The notes beneath the pieces are model-generated. The model did no database searches. It was given only the letters and a program-made list of their open reading frames with translations, and was not told the DNA's origin. A stretch of DNA of 64,000 nt from Escherichia phage JES2013. The stretch is from sequence record KC690136; one strand, 5' to 3'. The translations under genes and the position numbers were made by a program. Positions 1,911 to 29,862 of the stretch are shown here, in pieces (the first letter of the stretch is position 1; each line of letters begins with the position of its first letter).

Positions 1911-1940
1911 AAACAAAAAGCCCCCGCCGAAGCGAGGGCA
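1911..1940 (-). terminator. putative rho-independent terminator after tail fiber gene
   Basis: GC-rich hairpin (gcccccgcc gaag cgagggc) followed on the minus strand by a U-run (plus-strand A-run 1911-1919). Confidence 0.4.
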
Positions 1941-1946
1941 AAACAG

Positions 1947-4900
1947 TTACTTCAGTTTCTCTTGCAACCCAGTAACAACCTCTGTCAATTTTTTAACCTG
2001 CTCCTCAAGGTCGGTTATTTTATCGTCCTGTTCCCTGCAAACCTGGACAAGCAAGCCTGTTACAGCTGCGTAATCCACGCTGTAGAATCTTTCCTCTGTT
2101 ATCAAAGGAGTTCCATCTTGATCAGGGTTTGGGATTTCCTTTCTTTGCACGAAAGAGCTAACTGCTTCCGGCAGCGCTTCAAGCACTTCTTGTGCTATAA
2201 CACCTGCATAAGGCATACCGTTCTCTTTAAGAGTGTAAGTATAACCCTTCATCTTCCGGATAGCTTCTAACGCATCAGGAATAACAGCTATGTTATCTTT
2301 CAGATCTCTGTCAGAACTCTGATTGACAGATGTGCAATTCACAGCGCCGTTTACAGAAAGATATCTTGATTTATCTGGCAAGGTACCGCAATGCCATACC
2401 CAATTTGATTGAGACTCGTCAAGAACCTTAAACTCTAACACGTTTGGACGATCTCCTGTGCTGCCGTTACCCCAATAATACATATGGGCGGCATTAGCAG
2501 GCATGTTGCCACCGTTATTAGTAACATGACTTCCAGAAATATATACCTTTAACTCTGGGGTTGGTATTTCCCCTTCCGGGGTTGTTCCTCCATACCTGAA
2601 GCTAACACCATTACCACCTGTTTGGGTCCACGGGCCCCAAGTGAAGACCTGTTTCACCATATTCCCATAACGTGTAAATCTATCGCCATGGTAGGTAATA
2701 TATTCTTGAACACACCCATCACCGTTATTGGCGTTATTTTGCAACACAATAAGTGTTCCGGCCTCATTTACGGGATAATGACGATCATATGTTGCATCAT
2801 TATTTGCAGGCTGATGGTAAATACCTTCCCACAATCCGTGATAGGTGTTAAGGTCTGAAGAACCAAGACCTTGACCCCTGTGTTGCATAGCCTTATTCCA
2901 GGGATGGTGATTACCACCTTCTATAGACCTGGTGTATAAGTTACTTTGTCTGCCAGCAATCTGGAAAGCGTAGTTTCCCGAGAATCCTACAGATAACCCG
3001 CCTACAACCATGGTATCTTGTGGGCCGTTAACATTACCAGCTATTATTTTTGACGGGTTGTTAGGCCCAAACTGGTTGTTCCAGTCTGCACCCGTGTGGC
3101 ATACAAAACCGCCCGGAGCTGAGAAAGTGCCATCTTTGTTGAAGTTGTAGAATCTATGAGCTGTGCCTACAACATCACGAACAATAACTTGAGCAGCTTC
3201 TGGAGTAGATCTGAACTCTGCCTGTCCTTGCAGTCTTGCACCATTACCACATTTAGAGGTAAAGGTGTTGTTGATCAGATCCTCTGTTCCTTCCGACGCA
3301 GCCTGGAACCCTGCATTAGAGAACAGTGCTTTTCGAGTGGTCTGACTACCAGGGCAAAGGTAGTCAATACCGTCTGCCCATAGCTCGACTTTAGGCATAT
3401 TCATTTTGCTCATCACAGCATAGCGTTCAGCAGTGCCTATATAGTGCCACTGTGTGCCGCCACCAGTGTAGAACCCTGAAGTACCTTTGAAGTCAACAAT
3501 AGGTCTGGTATTGGTGTTGTTATCTCCAAGAACAGCGAGATTCAAATCTGCTGACTGGAGAGGTGCAACGAACTTAACACCGTCCTGATTGTTTGTTACA
3601 GAGCCGACCTGGTAATCTTGCTCTCTGGTAAACACTTCGACAACATTTCTACTTGCGTATATGCTGACAGGGAAAGCACGAGCCTCTACATAGAAAGCAA
3701 CATACTCTTGTTTACCCCTTGTTGGAGCAACCATCCCAAGAAGTGCTTTTTCATTCTGGTAGAAATTTACTACCCCGTAGAAAGAGTCTCCTCTGTCTGT
3801 CCAACCACCAGTCCTATAGTGACACTGTAAGGTAGCACAGTTCATAGGGTCATTTCCAGATGACGATCTGGTAACTATGGTAATATCAGTACCAGTTGCT
3901 GGAGCATAGTACGGATCTGTTCTAACGATGATCGGGTAGTATTTCCCATCTTCCATCCCTGCGGTTCTTGGCAGTGTTAAGAAGTCTTTCACACCTGCTG
4001 CTATAGGAACTTTGAACAGATTCTGAGCATCTGCTAAAGTTGTAGCCCCAGTACCACCTGCGGCTTGAGGTAAAGGTTCCCACTTGGCCTTCCGGTTGTT
4101 ATAAACACCCCATTCCAGAGTGCCGTTACCGGATTCGTCCATCCCACCATCCCAGACAACCATCTTGGCGGCTTTCTTGGACCCCCAGAAGCCTCTTTCT
4201 GCCCCTGAACTACGGATCCATTCTCCAAGACCCCAGTTTGTCAGCTGACCAGTAAGATCCCCAACCTGCATGTATTTAGGGCAGTCTAACACGCCATCTT
4301 CGCGGAAACCTAAATATCTATGAGTTTCAGATCCTTTTGCACCTTTGTGCAGGTGGATTGTCAACCAAGCCTTATTGTCGTTTCTTACCTCAGAGTAGAT
4401 CCTATATCCATGCTCAAGGACACCGTCAGCGCTGTATTTGTCCCCGTTAACAATACCTGATGCTGACTTAACATCAGCAGAACTTTGAGACAGGTAAAGG
4501 TGCCCAAAGGTAGGGGAGTTTCTAGACCCGAGACCGATGTGCGCTCTAAAGGTATCATCGTTACGAGGTCTGACCATCGGCTGCCATGCAGTCCACTGAT
4601 TTGTGTTGGCCTGATAGGTTCTTAAATACCAAACATCTACGTTAGAGAATGGATAGTATTCCTGACGACAACCTGTACCGCCGTTAGCATTGTTCTGCCA
4701 AACAATCAGGTGACCAGCACCAGAACCTGCAGGGTAACCATTTGCCTCAGTTGCATAAGCAGTCATCGGCTGGTAGTATACACCATCCTGATTACCAGTC
4801 AAGTTATTGATATTGAAATTTGGCTCAAGGGCTGCACGTTGCTTATAGAAAGCACCGATATTGATACGGACTCCAGCGGCATCTCTAGCCCCTGTGCCGC

Positions 4901-5765
4901 CTTGCTCTATAGCAAGAGGTTGCCACGAGGCTGTTTGTTGGTTCCACATACCCCAACGGCCTGTTGCGTCAAGCTGCAAGTACCCTGCCGTGTTTAAATC
5001 ATCTCCAGCACGGATAACTGTTCTTGTTGGGTTGTTTGCCTCCAGGCGTTTAAATTCATCACGAAGTGCTATTCTTTTCGTTGTTGCTACACCGTTGGTT
5101 ACTGCAATGGTGTACATGGCTCCGGTGGTAGCGCCACGGAAAATACCATCAACAGTTGTAGTATCACGACGAGATACCACACCGTTCAGAAATTTTTCAC
5201 CAGCTGCTGCAGAAGGGTAGTTGGTAGTTCTTCCCTCTTCAATAACTGCAGGGCCAACAAAGTTATCAAGGTGAATAACATCGCCTACAGTGTGCACTGT
5301 ACCAAAATCTACACGCTGTGCAAGTGCTTTGGCATCGTTAGCTGTCTGAACAGTAACATCCATTACATCCTGGACAGACTGCCCTTCGGCTGTCATGATC
5401 ATAGATGCGCCAATGGTAGATTCCAGCTCCTCCCTTAAGGACGGGTCTGTATATACCGTCCATGCAGCGTCAGTAATCCCACCATCGGAGTACGGTGAAG
5501 ACAATGCAGGAACAGTGTGCGGAAATTCGCCTTTCCAACGCAGGTAGAGGTCTTCCTCTTCGAAGTAGGCAAAATCCATTGGGCCGTTTAACTTACCACC
5601 TTCCTTAAAGGAGATTACATGAGAAACAGTCCCATCAACATGGACAACATCGCCAATTTTTACACGACGGGTCAGGTCTGGTTGTTGAACAACCAGGTAA
5701 TCATCCTCTGTCACTGCGGTAGTGGCAGGAAGAGATTCAATTCTGACAACTTTAATATCAGCCAT
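1947..5765 (-). CDS. long tail fiber protein with C-terminal intramolecular chaperone (peptidase S74-like) domain
   Basis: 1272-aa ORF; C-terminal ~120 aa (SSDRDLKDNIAV...YAGVIAQE...coiled coil) matches the auto-cleaving chaperone domain of phage fibers and endosialidases; Gly-rich repeats; internal duplicated segment. Confidence 0.75.
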   Translation of the reverse strand: MADIKVVRIESLPATTAVTEDDYLVVQQPDLTRRVKIGDVVHVDGTVSHVISFKEGGKLNGPMDFAYFEEEDLYLRWKGEFPHTVPALSSPYSDGGITDAAWTVYTDPSLREELESTIGASMIMTAEGQSVQDVMDVTVQTANDAKALAQRVDFGTVHTVGDVIHLDNFVGPAVIEEGRTTNYPSAAAGEKFLNGVVSRRDTTTVDGIFRGATTGAMYTIAVTNGVATTKRIALRDEFKRLEANNPTRTVIRAGDDLNTAGYLQLDATGRWGMWNQQTASWQPLAIEQGGTGARDAAGVRINIGAFYKQRAALEPNFNINNLTGNQDGVYYQPMTAYATEANGYPAGSGAGHLIVWQNNANGGTGCRQEYYPFSNVDVWYLRTYQANTNQWTAWQPMVRPRNDDTFRAHIGLGSRNSPTFGHLYLSQSSADVKSASGIVNGDKYSADGVLEHGYRIYSEVRNDNKAWLTIHLHKGAKGSETHRYLGFREDGVLDCPKYMQVGDLTGQLTNWGLGEWIRSSGAERGFWGSKKAAKMVVWDGGMDESGNGTLEWGVYNNRKAKWEPLPQAAGGTGATTLADAQNLFKVPIAAGVKDFLTLPRTAGMEDGKYYPIIVRTDPYYAPATGTDITIVTRSSSGNDPMNCATLQCHYRTGGWTDRGDSFYGVVNFYQNEKALLGMVAPTRGKQEYVAFYVEARAFPVSIYASRNVVEVFTREQDYQVGSVTNNQDGVKFVAPLQSADLNLAVLGDNNTNTRPIVDFKGTSGFYTGGGTQWHYIGTAERYAVMSKMNMPKVELWADGIDYLCPGSQTTRKALFSNAGFQAASEGTEDLINNTFTSKCGNGARLQGQAEFRSTPEAAQVIVRDVVGTAHRFYNFNKDGTFSAPGGFVCHTGADWNNQFGPNNPSKIIAGNVNGPQDTMVVGGLSVGFSGNYAFQIAGRQSNLYTRSIEGGNHHPWNKAMQHRGQGLGSSDLNTYHGLWEGIYHQPANNDATYDRHYPVNEAGTLIVLQNNANNGDGCVQEYITYHGDRFTRYGNMVKQVFTWGPWTQTGGNGVSFRYGGTTPEGEIPTPELKVYISGSHVTNNGGNMPANAAHMYYWGNGSTGDRPNVLEFKVLDESQSNWVWHCGTLPDKSRYLSVNGAVNCTSVNQSSDRDLKDNIAVIPDALEAIRKMKGYTYTLKENGMPYAGVIAQEVLEALPEAVSSFVQRKEIPNPDQDGTPLITEERFYSVDYAAVTGLLVQVCREQDDKITDLEEQVKKLTEVVTGLQEKLK

Positions 5766-5800
5766 TCTTTCTCCTGAAAGGGGGCAAACAGCCCCCTATG

Positions 5801-8398
5801 TTAAAGGTACAATCCACGGTATTGAGCATAGAGGCCCAGACCGCGAAGGATTTCGCCAGAGTGATAGCCCACCGGATCAGAAACTGCCCAGCAGCCGTTT
5901 AAAACATTATCACCATTGATGAAGTGGTGCTTTTGCAGTAGCTTCATACAGGCTTCTACAACAATATCTATTTGAGGTATTGTCTCTGAATACCCGCACA
6001 GACCTAGCCAGCAGCAACCTGCAAGCCATTCACCTACCACCCACATCCTGTCCCCTCTGTCTTGATAAGAATATCCCCCAGAGGTGTTAAAGTCTGTAGG
6101 CAGATTTCCTGAATGAGATGACTGGAATCTGTTGAGGAACCATGCCCATTTCTGGCAGAACAGGAATAATCTTTCATCAACAGGTTCTTTATGTTTCTTG
6201 AGCTCATAGATTGTGCGGCACGCAGCAACAAAAGATCTTGACTGGAGCTTGGAGTTATCTACCATCTCCCACCAACCAGTCAACCCTTCATTACCTCTTT
6301 GCCATACATAACGTGAGGCAACTGGACCCTCTGTCTTAAATGTATTATTATACCAGACTTGAGCGTCATACAGAAAGCCTATTGTATTTGACAATCTATG
6401 GCGATCTATGTTTTCTGCACCCATGCAGTAGACTGCCGGGTATTGCATGCCTGGGTAGGGCCAATTTGGCCTTTCCTCTAAGAGATAGTTTTCCTTATCT
6501 ATCACCTTTCCGGCAGGGAACACACCTGGTGTGTGCCTGTATGCACCTTGCTTGTAGTTTCTGACATAGCAATCGCCAACCTTAGCGGTTGATTCTGTCT
6601 TGCTTGCCATCCATACGCTAAACCAGATTAGATAAGCATCCCTATCTGCAATATAGAATTGCGGCAGCGTGTTGACGCAATATAGATCAAACAAGCCATT
6701 ACCTATCTGCCTGTCGCTTAGGCTGAAATCTACAGAGGTGAGCCCCTTAGGATTAGCAAAGAAAGGTTTAATCTCTTCTTCAGTGTGATGAGGTTGTGTC
6801 GGATCTAGTTTGAAATCTCCTAGAGTAAGAGTTTCTGTTATCCACTGTCCATTAGTGGCATATAGATCAGCATACCATAACCACCTGTCTTTGTCAAGAA
6901 ATTTGACCCTTACCATCTCATCATCTGATCGATAAGTTACTGAGTTTAAAGAAATCTCTCTTCCAAAATTGAAAGTTACTTTACCTCTTGCTATATTACA
7001 ACGGGTGAAGTTGTCAGAGTGGTTGTAAATGTCGGTATCATACTGCATACTAACACTAGCGCCACCACTTACGACAATGTTTTCCTCTTTAGGTAAGAGA
7101 TATGGATTACCGTCTTTACCAACCACCTCTACGAAATCAGTAACCTTGGCAACTATTTCTGTTACCTCTGCCCCTCCAAAAGGAACACCTATCCTGTACT
7201 GTTTTTTGTTATTGTTGCCATCATTAAGGATGAAATGTGGCTGGAACAGAACCCCTTCTCCTCCGAAATTCATAACAATTTCAGCATCTCTGCCTATTTT
7301 GTATGTAGTCCCTTTTTGAATTATTTCGCAAGGCTGGCGTGCGTTCATTCTAAAATTGATATATCCGTCACTGTCCCTGCTCATGACAGGAACTGTTCCT
7401 GCAACAAGACAAGTACCATCTGTAAACGGTGCCTTAATCAACGTGGTCTTCCTAAACAGTTTGTCGTAGGCGTTTATATCACTGAAATTAAGCAACTTGT
7501 TGTAAGACTGTTCAAACGCGGTGTAATACTTTTCCTCACCTGTCAAGGTGTAGAGTTGATAACAAGCGTCACACCACATTTCTTCCCCGTCCAACTCTGG
7601 GGCCTGATTATCTGCAACCACGTTTATGGGATTTACAATTACAGGGGATCCTGCAGGTATCACCGATCCACCCTGCTCTTGAGGTAATCTTACACAATAG
7701 GTCACTTTGTGGTTGCCTGTAACACCCTTATCTTGTAATTGGATTGTGCCAAACTCTACAGACGTATGACCACTATCAGCTATACTACCGTTAGCCCAAT
7801 AGCGATTACCATCCCATGCTATATACCACTCAACCCACCAACTTAATCCGGATGTTGTCCAATCTGGGTTAGCATCTGTGCCACCGTAAACATCAGAGTC
7901 TACAGTGTTTCTTCCTAACACGCCGTTATACGCTTGGAATGCCTTGTCCAGGTATTCCCCCCATGTCGGAGATCCAGCTGGGATTTTTCCTCTACCATTG
8001 GTAAAAGACACCACCACATCTTTAAACCCACCATGTGATGGAACCCCATCTGTGGATAGAGGGTAGTGGGACAATCTTTGCATTTTACTTTCTACTGCAT
8101 ATGCACCCAGAAGATGACTATTGTAAGCTTCCCAAGCATCTTTTGCCCTATCCAGATAGAAATCGCTTTTCGATGCTCTGTATGCTTCAATGTATCCCAG
8201 AATCAACACAGCTTGGGACTCATGCATTGCCCAATCATTATTTATCTTATTACCTGCCCACCCTGCAGCTATAAGACCATCAGGGTTTACTAGCTTATTT
8301 TGTGTAGGGGTGTTGGTAATACCTGTGTTGTTATCGAGGCACTTCCTGTGCCCCTCAATCATCTGAAATACGTTATCAATGTTATGTTGAATACGCAT
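5801..8398 (-). CDS. large tail fiber/tailspike distal protein, possible carbohydrate-active domain
   Basis: 865-aa ORF immediately downstream of the 222-aa anchor-like protein; helix-rich N- and C-terminal regions flanking a beta-rich core; no motif confirmed. Confidence 0.4.
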   Translation of the reverse strand: MRIQHNIDNVFQMIEGHRKCLDNNTGITNTPTQNKLVNPDGLIAAGWAGNKINNDWAMHESQAVLILGYIEAYRASKSDFYLDRAKDAWEAYNSHLLGAYAVESKMQRLSHYPLSTDGVPSHGGFKDVVVSFTNGRGKIPAGSPTWGEYLDKAFQAYNGVLGRNTVDSDVYGGTDANPDWTTSGLSWWVEWYIAWDGNRYWANGSIADSGHTSVEFGTIQLQDKGVTGNHKVTYCVRLPQEQGGSVIPAGSPVIVNPINVVADNQAPELDGEEMWCDACYQLYTLTGEEKYYTAFEQSYNKLLNFSDINAYDKLFRKTTLIKAPFTDGTCLVAGTVPVMSRDSDGYINFRMNARQPCEIIQKGTTYKIGRDAEIVMNFGGEGVLFQPHFILNDGNNNKKQYRIGVPFGGAEVTEIVAKVTDFVEVVGKDGNPYLLPKEENIVVSGGASVSMQYDTDIYNHSDNFTRCNIARGKVTFNFGREISLNSVTYRSDDEMVRVKFLDKDRWLWYADLYATNGQWITETLTLGDFKLDPTQPHHTEEEIKPFFANPKGLTSVDFSLSDRQIGNGLFDLYCVNTLPQFYIADRDAYLIWFSVWMASKTESTAKVGDCYVRNYKQGAYRHTPGVFPAGKVIDKENYLLEERPNWPYPGMQYPAVYCMGAENIDRHRLSNTIGFLYDAQVWYNNTFKTEGPVASRYVWQRGNEGLTGWWEMVDNSKLQSRSFVAACRTIYELKKHKEPVDERLFLFCQKWAWFLNRFQSSHSGNLPTDFNTSGGYSYQDRGDRMWVVGEWLAGCCWLGLCGYSETIPQIDIVVEACMKLLQKHHFINGDNVLNGCWAVSDPVGYHSGEILRGLGLYAQYRGLYL

Positions 8399-8399
8399 C

Positions 8400-9068
8400 T
8401 TAGATAGCTCCTGCGATAATCAGTGCCCCGTACCAAGTTAACCCGTTGTCGTAGGTTTCCAACTTGAAAATGTCTGTTGCACCAGCTGTAAATGTTAGGA
8501 TAGGATCTCTTCCGTAGGACCATTTAACATTACCAGGCCAATAGACTTTGTTGCCGCCAGAGGTCTGAGTAATGCATACGGTTATAGTTCTCGCCACCCC
8601 TTCAAGACCTTCTGTTTGATTTTCAAAAGAGATTGTGGTATTTGAAGTTAGTCGAACTTTAAAGGTATCCGCAACTTCAAGATCCATATCAAGCTGACCA
8701 CCGATAGATCCGTAATCAACTATTCTGCCAGAAGAAGTTGCAGCAAGCTCACCAAAAACAGACCAGGCATTTGCAGACACACCCCCAGCACCCTCTACCG
8801 TGGAGTCTGGGAGGATTATTTTAGGATAATCCCCGTTCCACGTGTAGTAGCGCTTAGTTTCTGGATCATAAGCAAAGTCCTTCTTGCTCTTAAGATAACC
8901 ACCCTCTGTGAAATAGACTATCTTAGTAATGCTAAGATCGTTGACAACATCGTCAATCTTAGCCTTTCTTGTCCCATCAGTCTGGTTGACAACCAAGAAG
9001 TCATCACTCAGGACTGTTTCTGCATCTTCAAGATCTGGAATTGGTATTGTAGGATAAGCTACAGCCAT
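8400..9068 (-). CDS. short tail fiber/adaptor protein sharing the N-terminal anchor domain of the long fiber
   Basis: 222 aa; first ~100 aa align with N-terminus of the 1272-aa fiber (DDFLVVNQTDGTRKAKIDDVV vs DDYLVVQQPDLTRRVKIGDVV; EGGYLKSKKDFAY vs EGGKLNGPMDFAY). Confidence 0.55.
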   Translation of the reverse strand: MAVAYPTIPIPDLEDAETVLSDDFLVVNQTDGTRKAKIDDVVNDLSITKIVYFTEGGYLKSKKDFAYDPETKRYYTWNGDYPKIILPDSTVEGAGGVSANAWSVFGELAATSSGRIVDYGSIGGQLDMDLEVADTFKVRLTSNTTISFENQTEGLEGVARTITVCITQTSGGNKVYWPGNVKWSYGRDPILTFTAGATDIFKLETYDNGLTWYGALIIAGAI

Positions 9069-9077
9069 GATTTCTCC

Positions 9078-9794
9078 TTAGTTAACATCAATAGCACGAC
9101 CAGACTGGTTGGCAATAGCCTCGTCATTAGAGGTAGCAATAACACCAGAGTATTCGCGCTCATCTGGAGCAAGCGTCCAGGTATTGCGGTTAATGGTTTG
9201 TTCTGCCTCAGTCATCAGCAGATCTTTATCCTGAGTCAACAGAGAGCCTACAGGGATCGGGTTTTCCATCTCAGGACCAGCATACTGGTTCCACCATGTG
9301 GCATCTCCGGTTCTAGGCAACCTGAAGTTGATCAGATAGTACAGTTTATTAGCCCACTTAATCCAACCCTCATCATCACAGAGAGAGGTTGTCCCAGAAT
9401 CAGGCTGTGGGTAGGTGAACTGATCAAGACCTACGAAAGCCAGCCTTACAATCTCGTTCTCTTTGGTAACAACCTCAAAGAACGCTTGGTATGTTCTCGA
9501 TCTTCGATCCATGGTAGACTGGAAGTTTATGATGTTTAGCACATCCGGCTCTTGTCTTGCCACTTCCATAATCTTGTTATCAAGAACAGTCTTCATGACC
9601 TTCTTACTGAGAAAGTCCATATAAGGGAAGCCAAACAACTCGTCAAAGTACCAGCTCCCCTTCCACGTATTAAACCTCATCCACAAGCGCTGGCGCAGAC
9701 TTACCTGGTTTGAATCTATCAACTCAAGACCTTTGTCTATCGCCAAATCACCTGTCTGTGGGTCCATCAATATATCACTGTAAAGCGTAGCCAT
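9078..9794 (-). CDS. hypothetical baseplate/tail protein
   Basis: 238-aa ORF in tail module. Confidence 0.45.
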   Translation of the reverse strand: MATLYSDILMDPQTGDLAIDKGLELIDSNQVSLRQRLWMRFNTWKGSWYFDELFGFPYMDFLSKKVMKTVLDNKIMEVARQEPDVLNIINFQSTMDRRSRTYQAFFEVVTKENEIVRLAFVGLDQFTYPQPDSGTTSLCDDEGWIKWANKLYYLINFRLPRTGDATWWNQYAGPEMENPIPVGSLLTQDKDLLMTEAEQTINRNTWTLAPDEREYSGVIATSNDEAIANQSGRAIDVN

Positions 9795-9806: not shown

Positions 9807-10484
9807 TTAGTGCGGTCCACTTGTCTCGCCATCAGGGCAAGAGTGGGTATGACCTTTATATTCTGCATAGAATGAATCCAAATCCACACCAGCAGCAGTT
9901 ATAATTCTACCAGATGGGTCTATTGTGGCACCATTCATTCTGATATTCCCATCCACAGCAGCTCGCAAATTGGCAGCCCCGTTAGTGAAAGAAAACTCCC
10001 CGCTGCTGTCGCACCGTAATGTCCCACCAGGTGTTTGAAGCTCAAAATCGCCAGAAGGTGTCAGTTTAAAATAAACCCTATCATTCCATAACTCTACGTT
10101 ATCAGGATCGATCTGTAAAGCGTTTGAGTCTGAATGGACAGAGGTGATTGCCCACCCTGGAAACAGGCCGTGAGTTTGTTGATCGTCGTTATTGTTTTCA
10201 TTTCTCTCTGAAAACTGTAATCCTACAACATCTCCAGCCTTAATAGGAAGTGTTAACCTTGCCTTTCCGCTGTTTGCAGACATCACCTGAATTGGAACGT
10301 CATAGATAAGAGGGTATCTCTCCACATCTCCGTCATCAAACGTAGTTTCAGCTATTGGCTGCACGGCTGCAGAAGGTATACTGTAGTCAACACTGACAAC
10401 TCTGGCCCTGATACTGGTGTGGTAGTCCCTCATTATTTTTTCTATAAAGGATCTTACAGCAGCATCTTTCCTATTTATTGCCAT
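9807..10484 (-). CDS. putative baseplate spike/needle-like protein
   Basis: 225-aa ORF; C-terminal His/Cys cluster (YKGHTHSCPDGETSGPH) reminiscent of metal-binding spike tips; position after tape measure. Confidence 0.3.
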   Translation of the reverse strand: MAINRKDAAVRSFIEKIMRDYHTSIRARVVSVDYSIPSAAVQPIAETTFDDGDVERYPLIYDVPIQVMSANSGKARLTLPIKAGDVVGLQFSERNENNNDDQQTHGLFPGWAITSVHSDSNALQIDPDNVELWNDRVYFKLTPSGDFELQTPGGTLRCDSSGEFSFTNGAANLRAAVDGNIRMNGATIDPSGRIITAAGVDLDSFYAEYKGHTHSCPDGETSGPH

Positions 10485-12870: not shown

Positions 12871-15207
12871 TTACCAAAGGTCGGTAGACATGAAGTTGAT
12901 ATCTTTATTGTTCTCCCACTCAAGTTTTGCATCAAATATTTTGTTAAACTCACCCTCATCTATTGAAATCGTGATTTTACCATCACTGATCTCTAAAGGC
13001 AGCATTTCCATAGTTCTTAATTGAGAAGCAAAACCAGGGCCACCTGGCAACGGGAGAGTCCCGCCCGGTAAGGTGTCCAAAGGATTGACAAACCCGTTAC
13101 CTCCCGATATGATATCTTTGCGAATCATATCGCTGATAGTATCCAGCTGCTGATTTCTTTCACTCAGTGGGTTGAAACGGTCATTAAATAATTCCCCGGC
13201 GCTTAATATTGTACCAATAATACCCAGCTTACCGAGCAGACCAACTTTGCCACCAGGTGTCTTGAGGCCACCTCCTCCTTTTCCTGCCGGAGCACCACCA
13301 CCAGATCCTTTTGTAGTAGCGGCACCTGCTGCTCCAGCCGCACCCCTCAGAGAGCTAAGGAATTTAAAGGTTTTTACAAGCATGGATGCCATGACAAAAC
13401 CTTTTGTTAGGGCGTTCACTACCAGCATGATGGCAGCAGCAAACCCTGCCCATTTAGCATAGCTAAAGGTGTCATGAAGCTCTTCAGAATATTCCTTCGT
13501 CTTGGCTGTTATGAATCCCCATTTAATTCCCCATTCAAGGAAAAACATGCGGATCTTAACTATAGTGTTGTTTAGTTCACCAACTACCCAGTTAAGACCT
13601 CTCACAAACCCGCTAACAAAATCACCAGAGGCATCCCACACAAATTGTAGAGTCTCACCAGTGCGGATCAGTGTATAATAGAACTCTGTTAGTTCGTCAG
13701 ACCAACGGGTGAACAGTTTCTGACGAGTCAGTTCGATGAAGGTTTTCAGTCTGTTTTCTGCCAGCACGTTAGACTTCTGCATTCTTTCATAACCAGCTGC
13801 AGATGCCTCGTTCATGTACTTAGCCACATACTTCATGATCTTGGCTGTTTTAACCTCACCTTTCTTCATCATGTCCATAAACTGATCCATGGAGAGTTCA
13901 GAAAGACCAAAAGCCTCTTTGGTAGCCTTGATAAAAGGTTCGTATGCACCAGGTAATGCTTCAGCAAGTTGTTGCTTCAGTTCTTCGGACATTACTTGCC
14001 CTTTACCGAGCATCTGTTGGATTGCCATAATACCGCGCTGGTATTTTACCTCATCAGCACCATAAGCAGCAGCATACTGGGAGTATGCAGAAAACAGCTC
14101 ATGCACTTCCTGATTTGTCATCTGGTTTTTGGCGTTTACCGACATCTGGGCGTAACCTTGAAGACCAGATTTGAGATCAAAACCAAGACGCATAGCCTCT
14201 TGCTGGACAAACGCAACCTCACTGTTGGCTTTGTTTGGATCTCCAGTAACAGCAGTAAGAGCAGCACTTGCCCCCTCCATCATGTGACCGGATCTGTTAA
14301 CCGCAGCAAATCCAGAAAAAGCTGTATACGCAGCTGTTGCATTAATAACAGATCTACGTAAGTCTCTCATGGCATCGCCTAGTGTAAGCGTTTGGCTGGT
14401 GGCACTTTTAAATCCAGACTGCAGCGCTGACAGGTGGGCGTTAAAGGTTGACTTTTTCATCTCCCCGCGAGCAAACCTAGACTCTAACTCTGAGTATCCT
14501 GGCAAGCTTCCACGGAATCCGGCCCCATACTTGGCAGAAAGTCTTATCGCGGAGTTGTAGAGGTGGGTTCTCCTTGCCTCACGATCCGACATAAGCCTGT
14601 TATCCATACCAGCTTTACTGTCTCTTCTTAGCTGTCTATGATAACGATTCATAGCGGCTGTCTGAGCTTTCACAAGGTTAGGGTCGGAAGCCACACCACC
14701 CATATTAGGGTTACCGGGGATATATTTGAAAGATTTGGCATTAGCCAAAACTCTTGCCTTAGGTGCCTTATAACCACCGTAAGATACTGGTGCAGATTTG
14801 GCAGCCTTTTTGGCCTCTTTAGCTTGCTGCTGGTAGAACTTACGCATCCTAGCCATTTCTGGATTTTTAGCGGTAAGATTACCTACAGCTTGTTTACGTC
14901 TCGCATTCTCCCTACGTTCTATTGCAGCCCTTACTGCAGCCTCTTTCTTGGCCTGTGCTACGCTCTCTCTGTGCAGTTTAGCATTTGCCTGAGACTGCTG
15001 TCTGGCAACCCTCTGCATTGTCTGCTGGGTTTTAACAGCTACCGCCTGCCATCTACTCATGGGGTTGGCTGAGTTAAAATCCTCGCCCAGTTTCCTGAAC
15101 TCCCTCCCAATACTGCGAATTTTCTCTACAGCTTTTTTGTAGGAGGAGTTCTCTATCTCAAAGCCAATCTTGTTGACTGTTGTGGCAACTATTTTGTTTG
15201 TAGCCAT
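12871..15207 (-). CDS. tail tape measure protein
   Basis: 778 aa; Ala/Gln/Lys-rich helical composition, Gly-rich segment, position directly after chaperone ORF pair. Confidence 0.7.
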   Translation of the reverse strand: MATNKIVATTVNKIGFEIENSSYKKAVEKIRSIGREFRKLGEDFNSANPMSRWQAVAVKTQQTMQRVARQQSQANAKLHRESVAQAKKEAAVRAAIERRENARRKQAVGNLTAKNPEMARMRKFYQQQAKEAKKAAKSAPVSYGGYKAPKARVLANAKSFKYIPGNPNMGGVASDPNLVKAQTAAMNRYHRQLRRDSKAGMDNRLMSDREARRTHLYNSAIRLSAKYGAGFRGSLPGYSELESRFARGEMKKSTFNAHLSALQSGFKSATSQTLTLGDAMRDLRRSVINATAAYTAFSGFAAVNRSGHMMEGASAALTAVTGDPNKANSEVAFVQQEAMRLGFDLKSGLQGYAQMSVNAKNQMTNQEVHELFSAYSQYAAAYGADEVKYQRGIMAIQQMLGKGQVMSEELKQQLAEALPGAYEPFIKATKEAFGLSELSMDQFMDMMKKGEVKTAKIMKYVAKYMNEASAAGYERMQKSNVLAENRLKTFIELTRQKLFTRWSDELTEFYYTLIRTGETLQFVWDASGDFVSGFVRGLNWVVGELNNTIVKIRMFFLEWGIKWGFITAKTKEYSEELHDTFSYAKWAGFAAAIMLVVNALTKGFVMASMLVKTFKFLSSLRGAAGAAGAATTKGSGGGAPAGKGGGGLKTPGGKVGLLGKLGIIGTILSAGELFNDRFNPLSERNQQLDTISDMIRKDIISGGNGFVNPLDTLPGGTLPLPGGPGFASQLRTMEMLPLEISDGKITISIDEGEFNKIFDAKLEWENNKDINFMSTDLW

Positions 15208-29325: not shown

Positions 29326-29402
29326 TGGTCTCCACGGAGTGATTCGAACACTCGACCTCCTGATCCCAAATCAGGCGCTCTACCAAGCTGAGCTACGCGG
29401 AG
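29326..29402 (-). tRNA. tRNA-Pro (anticodon UGG)
   Basis: Manual cloverleaf: acceptor CTCCGCG/CGTGGAG, D-arm GCTC/GAGC, anticodon loop TTTGGGA, T-arm GAGTG TTCGAAT CACTC, encoded CCA. Confidence 0.7.
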
Positions 29403-29413
29403 TATTCATTATT

Positions 29414-29488
29414 TGGTGGCCCTGGGTGGAATTGAACCACCGTCTGGCGATTATGAGTCGCTTGCTTGAACCTTCCAGCTACAGGGCC
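29414..29488 (-). tRNA. tRNA-Met (anticodon CAU; could be initiator, elongator or Ile2)
   Basis: Manual fold: acceptor GGCCCTG/CAGGGCC, anticodon loop CTCATAA, T-arm GGTGG TTCAATT CCACC, encoded CCA. Confidence 0.65.
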
Positions 29489-29489
29489 A

Positions 29490-29565
29490 TGGTGCTGATG
29501 GCAGGACTTGAACCTGCAACCTATTGATTACAAATCAATTGCACTACCAATTGTGCTACATCAGC
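29490..29565 (-). tRNA. tRNA-Thr (anticodon UGU)
   Basis: Manual fold: acceptor GCTGATG/CATCAGC, D-arm GCAC/GTGC, anticodon loop TTTGTAA, T-arm GCAGG TTCAAGT CCTGC, encoded CCA. Confidence 0.65.
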
Positions 29566-29570
29566 AAAAA

Positions 29571-29661
29571 GGTGCTAGGTGATGGAGTCGAACCACCCGA
29601 ATCGCAATGATAACAGATTTACAGTCTGCCCCGCTACCCCTACGGAATTAACTCACCTAAA
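29571..29661 (-). tRNA. tRNA-Tyr-like (anticodon GUA), atypical 5' half; 5' boundary uncertain
   Basis: Anticodon arm GCAGA CTGTAAA TCTGT identical in core to bacterial tRNA-Tyr; canonical T-arm GGTGG TTCGACT CCATC; long variable region; acceptor/D-arm pairing not resolved by hand. Confidence 0.45.
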
Positions 29662-29787
29662 TACTAATATTTAAATTCTTTTTAAAATAGCTAGTGTTCT
29701 CACCACTAACTATGAGGTATCGGTAAAGTGGTTACCGCCACTTGCCGAAGATTTACTCTGCTAAAGTAAGCTACATTAAAAAGAACT

Positions 29788-29862
29788 TGGCACCCCGTAC
29801 TGGACTCGAACCAGTGTCAACGGCTTAGAAGGCCGCTGCTTTATCCACTAAGCTAACAGGGC
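29788..29862 (-). tRNA. tRNA-Arg (anticodon UCU)
   Basis: Manual fold: acceptor GCCCTGT/ACGGGGT with G-U pairs, anticodon loop CTTCTAA, T-arm ACTGG TTCGAGT CCAGT, encoded CCA. Confidence 0.65.

Follow-up and report, generated by a model that had tools for sequence, protein, structure and literature searches.

The principle of branching several receptor-binding proteins from one tail is already known from phages CBA120, G7C, K1-5/SP6 and the T5-like phages. In the Kuttervirus CBA120 (TSP1-4) and in ViI-like phages, several enzymatic receptor-binding proteins are mounted on one baseplate and joined via N-terminal modules, the docking domains belonging to the large tailspikes themselves. The adaptor of the podophages K1E, K1-5 and SP6, like the G7C pair gp66 and gp63.1, follows a different plan in which a tail-attached protein, small or bearing an anchor, carries an enzymatic protein that lacks an anchor. 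In the T5-like phages DT57C and DT571/2 (LtfA/LtfB), a modular N-terminal region allows two receptor-binding proteins to attach at a single point; the branched-fibre paper on these phages is among the works referred to by the authors who described phage LL12.

A further case is phage phi92, for which a cryo-EM study of 2026 placed fibre I on the wedge protein gp145, took its distal part to be the endosialidase gp143, and likened this L-shaped fibre to the scaffold plus endosialidase arrangement of K1E/K1-5 (PMC13450770). Fibre II branches from the base of fibre I and could not be identified in that study (PMC13450770). Here we describe a locus in which a 222-aa protein, gp43, is probably a modular adaptor that docks the enzyme-like gp42 to the tail on an anchor paralogous to that of the long fibre gp41; both the contact and the docking site belong to the predicted part of this arrangement.

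The lateral fibre locus

The window (the whole stretch of DNA analyzed, 64,000 nt of Escherichia phage JES2013, sequence record KC690136) is 97.9% identical between positions 1900 and 9100 to Escherichia phage V5 (rV5) over the whole 7.2 kb, and 96-97% identical to many further Vequintavirus genomes. The annotated loci of rV5 and of BASEL phages have the same gene order, with rV5 gp49 to gp39 collinear. Near-identical DNA and gene order make this the lateral fibre locus of a Vequintavirus (rV5-like phage), and its gp43 is 100% identical to that of rV5. A preliminary description of this DNA, made from the letters alone, gave correct lengths for the three reading frames of 222, 865 and 1272 aa and correct coordinates for the first and the last; all three are on the minus strand (Table 1). 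The 2-nt gap that it reported between the first two is in fact 1 nt, a G between TAA and ATG. Since the Shine-Dalgarno AGGAG for gp42 sits within the 3′ end of the gp43 gene, the sequence of the junction has a layout typical of translational coupling.

Table 1. Features of the lateral fibre locus, in window coordinates.
Feature	Position	Strand	Basis
Tape measure	12871-15207	-	Pfam/PHROG annotation
Tube initiator-like protein, plug, hub, central spike	between tape measure and gp44	-	
gp45	9807-10484		PF18352
gp44	9078-9794	-	
gp43 homologue, 222 aa, probable adaptor	8400..9068 (including stop codon)	-	ORF; PHROG 7760 'tail fiber protein', E 8e-120
gp43 residues 1-45, motif, putative virion-attachment peptide	8934..9068	-	Alignment and profile search
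gp43 residues 46-105, Tail_spike_N (PF18668) module	8754..8933	-	Pfam, 41 bits (cut-off 25)
gp43 residues 114-222, C-terminal beta-sandwich, putative gp42-docking domain	8403..8729	-	AF2, alignment, gene context
gp43/gp42 junction	8396..8412	-	Shine-Dalgarno AGGAG 8412-8408, TAA 8402-8400, spacer 8399, ATG 8398-8396
gp42 homologue, 865 aa, (alpha/alpha)6 glycosidase-like, beta-rich insertions, without anchor	5801..8398	-	
Hairpin GGGGGC-TGTTT-GCCCCC followed by TTTC, in the gp42-gp41 gap	5780..5796	-	Sequence reading
gp41 homologue, 1272 aa, lateral tail fibre, built-in anchor	1947..5765	-	PHROG 6578, PF18668, PF13884
gp41 residues 1-105, paralogue of the gp43 N-terminus (motif and Tail_spike_N)	5451..5765	-	
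gp41 residues 1151-1202, Peptidase_S74 (endosialidase chaperone)	2160..2315	-	Pfam, 52.1 bits (cut-off 22)
Intrinsic-terminator-like hairpin and T-run, 3′ of gp41	1920..1939	-	Terminator scan

The 35-nt gap between gp42 and gp41 holds a perfect 6-bp GC hairpin that the terminator scan did not call, its T-run being too short; judged by its sequence, it might act as a weak terminator or stabilize the transcript, and so determine how strongly the two fibre systems are expressed relative to each other. Directly 3′ of gp41, at 704-1847 on the minus strand and continuing beyond the window start, lies a siphophage-style module in what is a myophage. It corresponds to rV5 gp37-gp40 (locus L003, 18693-24100), for which RefSeq gives 'distal tail protein' (gp40), 'tail protein' (gp39) and hypothetical (gp38), the BASEL homologue of gp38 being named 'cell wall hydrolase'; gp37 (1279 aa) has lambda J-type domains (Phage_Tail_Tip, Ig_J_second). 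This Dit/J-like set may form one lateral fibre of the contractile-tail phage.

Elsewhere in the window, four tRNA genes are clustered at 29326-29862 on the minus strand (Pro-TGG, Met-CAT, Thr-TGT, Arg-TCT), and the sign of the GC skew flips at ~34 kb, marking the switch from minus- to plus-strand transcription. About 20 GenBank records (MG065644-MG065682) labelled 'Campylobacter phage', with Campylobacter jejuni as host, match rV5-like E. coli phages at this locus with 97-100% identity; the probable explanation is a wrong label or contamination with E. coli phages.

A shared N-terminus on gp43 and gp41

Residues 8-105 of gp43 and 7-105 of gp41 are 38% identical over 99 residues (BLASTP, E 2e-18). 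When the two N-termini (112 aa each) were used as phmmer queries against the 624 six-frame ORFs (50 aa or longer) that the window and the other rV5 fibre genes contain, each retrieved solely the other (E 3e-17 and 2e-18), the next match having an E of at least 0.09. Because only the partner is retrieved and nothing else below that value, the similarity exceeds chance by a wide margin and the anchor is detectable in exactly two copies; no third paralogue of it was found in the window or among gp27-gp40, which complete the rV5 fibre locus. The N-terminal alignment proposed in the preliminary description is thus well above background, and all three peptide pairs quoted in its support occur in the translations of the two proteins. 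We found no paper describing this paralogy, and Kropinski et al. had noted by HHpred that the gp43 N-terminus resembles that of the P22 tailspike (PMC3606486).

The common region consists of two elements. Both proteins exceed the gathering threshold of Tail_spike_N, the TSP1/Gp66 N-terminal domain (PF18668, 25 bits), gp43 with 41.0 bits (51-105) and gp41 with 40.6 bits (46-103). The gp43 module (46-105) matches in sequence the N-terminal regions of the tailspike structures 9occ, 8x8m, 5w6f, 5w6h, 4oj5 and 4qnl, and matches to the module in gp43 and gp41 include the N-terminal regions of CBA120 TSP1, TSP3 and TSP4. By tblastn, PF18668 lies within tailspikes of many unrelated phages (K1F gp17, Jersey-like, Kuttervirus), often downstream of the tailspike start. 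From its sequence distribution, the segment 46-105 is a widespread neck module and not an anchor peculiar to one lineage.

Ahead of this module, residues 1-45 contain the motif MA..t(I/V).(I/V).dL......DF.VV.Q.d.TRK, which in the alignment (also including LL12 gp41) is common to gp43, gp41, gp049 and gp047 of the Seunavirus 4MG, and the 157-aa adaptor of the Phapecoctavirus Schickermooser (gp258); the last of these has the motif and lacks the PF18668 module, and 4MG gp047, which with gp049 makes up the corresponding pair, degrades colanic acid. A 48-aa profile of the motif matched gp43 and gp41 only in the window and rV5 fibre locus; run over 45 kb of phi92, it picked out two proteins and no others, gp140 (E 5e-23) and gp143 (E 2e-10), the latter being the endosialidase. 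We infer that this motif is the actual attachment element.

At least six further lineages, phi92 among these, have an adaptor that shares its anchor with a resident fibre, and the anchor is a different one in each. In 4MG, the adaptor N-terminus matches another fibre gene of the locus (E 3e-28), in Erwinia phage SunLIRen a resident fibre gene (E 5e-17), and in Vibrio phage D533 (E 2e-8), podophage 7-11 (E 6e-9) and the metagenomic phage L004 (E 8e-11 and 9e-7) resident fibre or tail genes, with a borderline match to a resident gene in Roseobacter phage CRP-9 (E 2e-3).

gp42 and its genomic pairing with the gp43 C-terminal domain

Neither Pfam nor phmmer searches with the gp43 and gp41 N-termini detect an anchor in gp42, in agreement with the preliminary description. 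Its fold is an (alpha/alpha)6 toroid, as in glycoside hydrolases of the GH8, GH48, GH88, GH105 and GH76 type. By sequence it matches neither a Pfam family (E <= 0.01) nor a PDB entry (E <= 1), and it belongs to no named GH family. Eight residues (E60, Q62, D270, E272, D678, Q680, W699 and R721) are conserved in 87-100% of 58 full-length homologues, and several conserved residues, acidic ones included, lie at N-terminal ends of predicted barrel helices; this pattern would fit an active site, E60, D270, E272 and D678 being suggestive, and gp42 may be catalytically active. The preliminary description had held that its reading would fail if the 865-aa protein were a non-structural enzyme. The fold is indeed that of an enzyme, yet gp42 is found, together with gp41 and gp43, in rV5 virions by mass spectrometry (Kropinski et al., PMC3606486). 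The LL12 paper makes gp42 the counterpart of phi92 gp141 (PMC7229145), and gp141 is listed as a glycosidase in a review (PMC5380687).

The window and phage LL12 are 99% identical in gp42 and 98% in gp43. gp41 is 90% identical to LL12 gp41 over residues 1-1049 and then continues into an unrelated tip; a self-cleaving chaperone domain, Peptidase_S74 (PF13884), lies near its C-terminus (1151-1202 of 1272). In the BASEL collection, variation is likewise confined to the largest fibre genes (PMC8594841). Since the gp41 tip is variable and gp42 and gp43 are near-constant, the comparison suggests that the target of gp42 is a conserved glycan. Taken together, gp42 is probably a virion-borne, (alpha/alpha)6 glycosidase-like enzyme that cuts or binds a conserved surface glycan.

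Relatives of gp42 are rare: a word-indexed search gave 6, and when 1.84 billion proteins were scanned exhaustively they formed 92 representative clusters, nearly all of which begin to match at their own residues 5-15. Among phage records 523 have one, and these are spread over the genera in the way that relatives of gp43 are. A beta-domain of ~100 aa is inserted in gp42 relatives (gp42 480-580; motif GFIIGFW...YRAD...W.WW). A domain of this type is also C-terminal in the 502-aa fibre gp92 of the Kolesnikvirus SunLIRen (locus L009, 4129-5634), which is adjacent to the adaptor, and it may be a carbohydrate-binding module common to the two proteins; P0119 from the exhaustive scan and PHROG 23426 also point to it.

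The C-terminal part of gp43 (114-222) is modelled by AlphaFold2 as a beta-sandwich with a pLDDT of about 85; the N-terminal half has a pLDDT below 50, which counts against the proposed role as adaptor. The alignment motif of the domain is Q-G-tGaN-kV-WP-nvKW-G-PvLsY-D-T-D-G-TW-G. A word-indexed homologue search with gp43 returned 4 close relatives only, and the diversity was gathered by tblastn and an alignment query: relatives are present in 534 records among 50,697 phage genomes (tblastn), mostly matching in the C-terminal domain alone, and in a collection of 5.8 billion proteins the homologues of this domain are all small proteins (107-212 aa). Several PHROG 'tail fiber' families match this domain at their C-terminal ends. 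The fold of the domain has weak similarity to the N-terminal region of CBA120 TSP4 and to the Pa223 capsid spike. Towards the CBA120 docking domains the similarity is likewise weak (Foldseek probability 0.41, low TM-scores), which counts against the adaptor role, and kinship with the 'XD' docking domains of the T4 gp10-like / CBA120 type is at most a possibility.

This C-terminal domain and gp42 travel together. In three distant contexts reached via gp42 relatives, the gene immediately upstream of that for the enzyme (153, 244 or 473 aa) directly adjoins it or overlaps with it and has the gp43 C-terminal domain at its end (E 1e-20, 3e-20 and 2e-12), while its N-terminal part differs each time. 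Among ten diverse phages and prophages with a protein of this kind, nine have a gp42 relative directly downstream of it (E 1e-36 to 1e-168): a Seunavirus, a Phapecoctavirus, a Kolesnikvirus, a Rosemountvirus, a Vibrio myophage, a jumbo Seoulvirus, podophage 7-11, a metagenomic phage and a Burkholderia prophage. We also drew, independently, on 71 IMG/VR loci retrieved with a gp42 alignment; 67 of them were viral contigs with enough upstream sequence, and the pair is present in 65 of these. The GenBank annotation of 7-11 notes both genes of the pair as resembling rV5 and phiEa21-4 proteins. The sole exception among the ten is CRP-9 (locus L013, 5461-8244), where the domain-bearing protein is followed by a 649-aa protein with no similarity to the gp42-family profile. 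Because this partner is unrelated, the gp43 C-terminal domain is not strictly tied to gp42 relatives, and it may accept other partners.

The adaptors of the 77 loci (153-568 aa) fall into 14 unrelated groups by N-terminal sequence, which include PF18668, the P2-type tail-collar fibre (PF12571), SPRY and coiled coils; some of these N-termini are, by sequence, known virion anchors or fibre parts. The adaptor domain with its enzyme is thus a conserved cassette with interchangeable anchors, present in about 1% of sequenced phages, and we found no paper describing it. The layout set out in the preliminary description, one fibre with a built-in anchor (gp41) and a two-gene unit of anchor-bearing gp43 and anchor-less gp42, holds in the window, and the cassette is conserved in both samples.

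Three of the 92 representative gp42 relatives (P0065, P0076, P0071) have an N-terminal extension of ~280 aa. In P0071, residues 157-249 match nearly the full adaptor domain when a 50-sequence profile is searched against 2,908 sequences (full-sequence E 6e-8; next non-family match E 0.9). This domain directly precedes the gp42-like part, and there is no separate adaptor gene upstream. A smaller first adaptor profile had given 12.6 bits only on the three extensions, and hhalign of the extensions against the adaptor domain was not significant, which also counts against the adaptor role. P0065 and P0076 are weakly alignable to P0071 and were rejected as fused adaptors since the 50-sequence profile backs P0071 only, so that an adaptor-enzyme fusion is supported by the sequence of one bacterial protein. 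A fused ancestor with Tail_spike_N on the enzyme was found neither in the 6 word-indexed relatives nor in the 92 exhaustive representatives. The two-gene form is the widespread common state and not a recent split, and adaptor-domain fusion is rare. Of the 'split' second fibre in the preliminary description, the two-gene layout therefore stands and the split as an evolutionary event does not.

P0071 itself (1512 aa) is encoded on a bacterial chromosome (GCA_024764835.1, JALIGE010000076.1; locus L016, 6001-10539) with no obvious prophage, and has IS elements on its flanks. On one side of it is a cellulose synthase (bcs) operon and on the other a PGA (pga) operon, a neighbourhood that hints that the gp42 enzyme family acts on exopolysaccharides.

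The arrangement that we favour can be outlined as follows. gp43 would use its N-terminal motif to attach where gp41 does, or at a site of like kind, on the baseplate or the fibre network, and would be a trimer like other PF18668 proteins. Its C-terminal beta-sandwich (110 aa), as a dedicated partner of gp42, would hold the anchor-less enzyme, and coupled translation, with the gp42 start 1 nt downstream, would supply the two proteins in matched amounts. The phage would then carry a single-chain fibre with a variable tip (gp41) and a two-protein enzymatic appendage (gp43 and gp42) on paralogous anchors, and the cassette of adaptor domain and enzyme would move between phages with only the N-terminal part of the adaptor being replaced for each tail. 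The strongest argument for gp43 as adaptor is that the part fitted to the host tail varies and copies the resident fibre, while the C-terminal domain and the gp42 N-terminus are constant across myophages, a podophage and prophages.

That last contrast also weighs on the idea that gp43 is an independent short fibre or spike with its C-terminal domain as the receptor-binding tip, gp42 attaching separately and the two genes being neighbours via a common glycan. The 'tail fiber' matches of the domain, its resemblance to the Pa223 capsid spike and the missing gp42 relative in CRP-9 would all suit such a spike. However, a directly docking gp42 should have a lineage-variable N-terminus, and what changes among phages and prophages with unrelated tails is the adaptor N-terminus only; adjacency in 74 of the 77 loci, with coupled starts, and the natural fusion in P0071 argue in the same direction, and we regard an independent spike as unlikely. 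It is less likely still that the main task of gp43 is to help gp42 assemble or fold, in the manner of tail fibre assembly proteins, and not to serve as a stable structural linker. Tight gene coupling, a strict family-to-family partnership and conserved adjacency are also expected of fibre chaperones, and detection in the particle is no structural proof, since gp32, annotated as a tail fibre assembly protein, is likewise in the rV5 proteome (PMC3606486). A chaperone would nevertheless have no need of PF18668 or of a motif common to gp41 and the phi92 endosialidase, and adaptor N-termini elsewhere are known virion anchors, e.g., the P2 tail-collar fibre N-terminus. Production of gp43 and gp42 as one polypeptide by programmed frameshifting at the 1-nt junction might be imagined from the proximity of the genes in different frames and from the fused relative P0071. 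With a good Shine-Dalgarno and ATG for gp42, a junction without slippery sequence, and junctions elsewhere that range from a 35-nt overlap (7-11) to a 12-nt gap in differing frames, we give it hardly any credence.

Comparison with known multi-receptor systems

With gp43 as the adaptor of gp42, the locus can be set beside that of phi92 (gp140-gp143, gp150 and gp151), in which the homologue gp140 is gp43 minus the PF18668 module and gp141 is the homologue of gp42 (PMC7229145). The phi92 gp143 resembles gp41 in the 45-aa motif and in the type of S74 chaperone domain, and differs in being an endosialidase where rV5-type phages have gp41. By homology, gp41 would correspond to fibre I, and gp43 with gp42 would be a candidate for fibre II. 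The cryo-EM study did not have gp141 among the candidates fitted to the map, and predicted gp140 alone was not a good fit to the fibre II density, which counts against the adaptor role (PMC13450770). We therefore put forward only tentatively, as a possibility on the doubtful side, the fuller proposal that the gp43 C-terminal domain and gp42 are a portable, structurally undescribed plug-in unit, an (alpha/alpha)6 enzyme on a short adaptor with an exchangeable N-terminus, and that gp140 with gp141, or gp43 with gp42, form fibre II. In the wiring so proposed, gp41 (phi92 gp143) and the adaptor gp43 (gp140) would use one attachment motif, and gp42 (gp141) would ride on the adaptor.

What is new here is a widespread portable cassette of adaptor domain and enzyme, an unusual enzyme fold and a testable assignment for fibre II of phi92. 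Phages of the rV5-like and phi92-like groups are valued in therapy for their broad host range, and the cassette could be a template for engineering in which a new enzyme is fitted to a phage by exchanging only the adaptor N-terminus.

The T5-like DT57C and DT571/2 are siphophages whose protein families differ from gp41-gp43, and they are not known to place a conserved docking domain on a small adaptor of its own. The likeness to CBA120 is closer at the level of sequence, as gp41 and gp43 have PF18668 as in TSP1 and match the N-terminal regions of TSP3 and TSP4. Unlike in CBA120, the putative docking domain is on a separate protein, the 222-aa gp43, and the distal partner is an (alpha/alpha)6 enzyme and not a beta-helix spike. 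In the division of labour between an anchor-bearing and an anchor-less protein, gp43 and gp42 are like the adaptor systems of K1E/K1-5/SP6 and G7C, none of whose adaptors is among the sequence or fold matches of the gp43 C-terminal domain. The branched-fibre paper on DT57C and DT571/2 mentioned at the outset is cited in PMC7229145. Unlike the podophage adaptors, the gp43/gp42 cassette combines a single conserved, putative docking domain with many anchors, and its carriers are myophages, a podophage and prophages.
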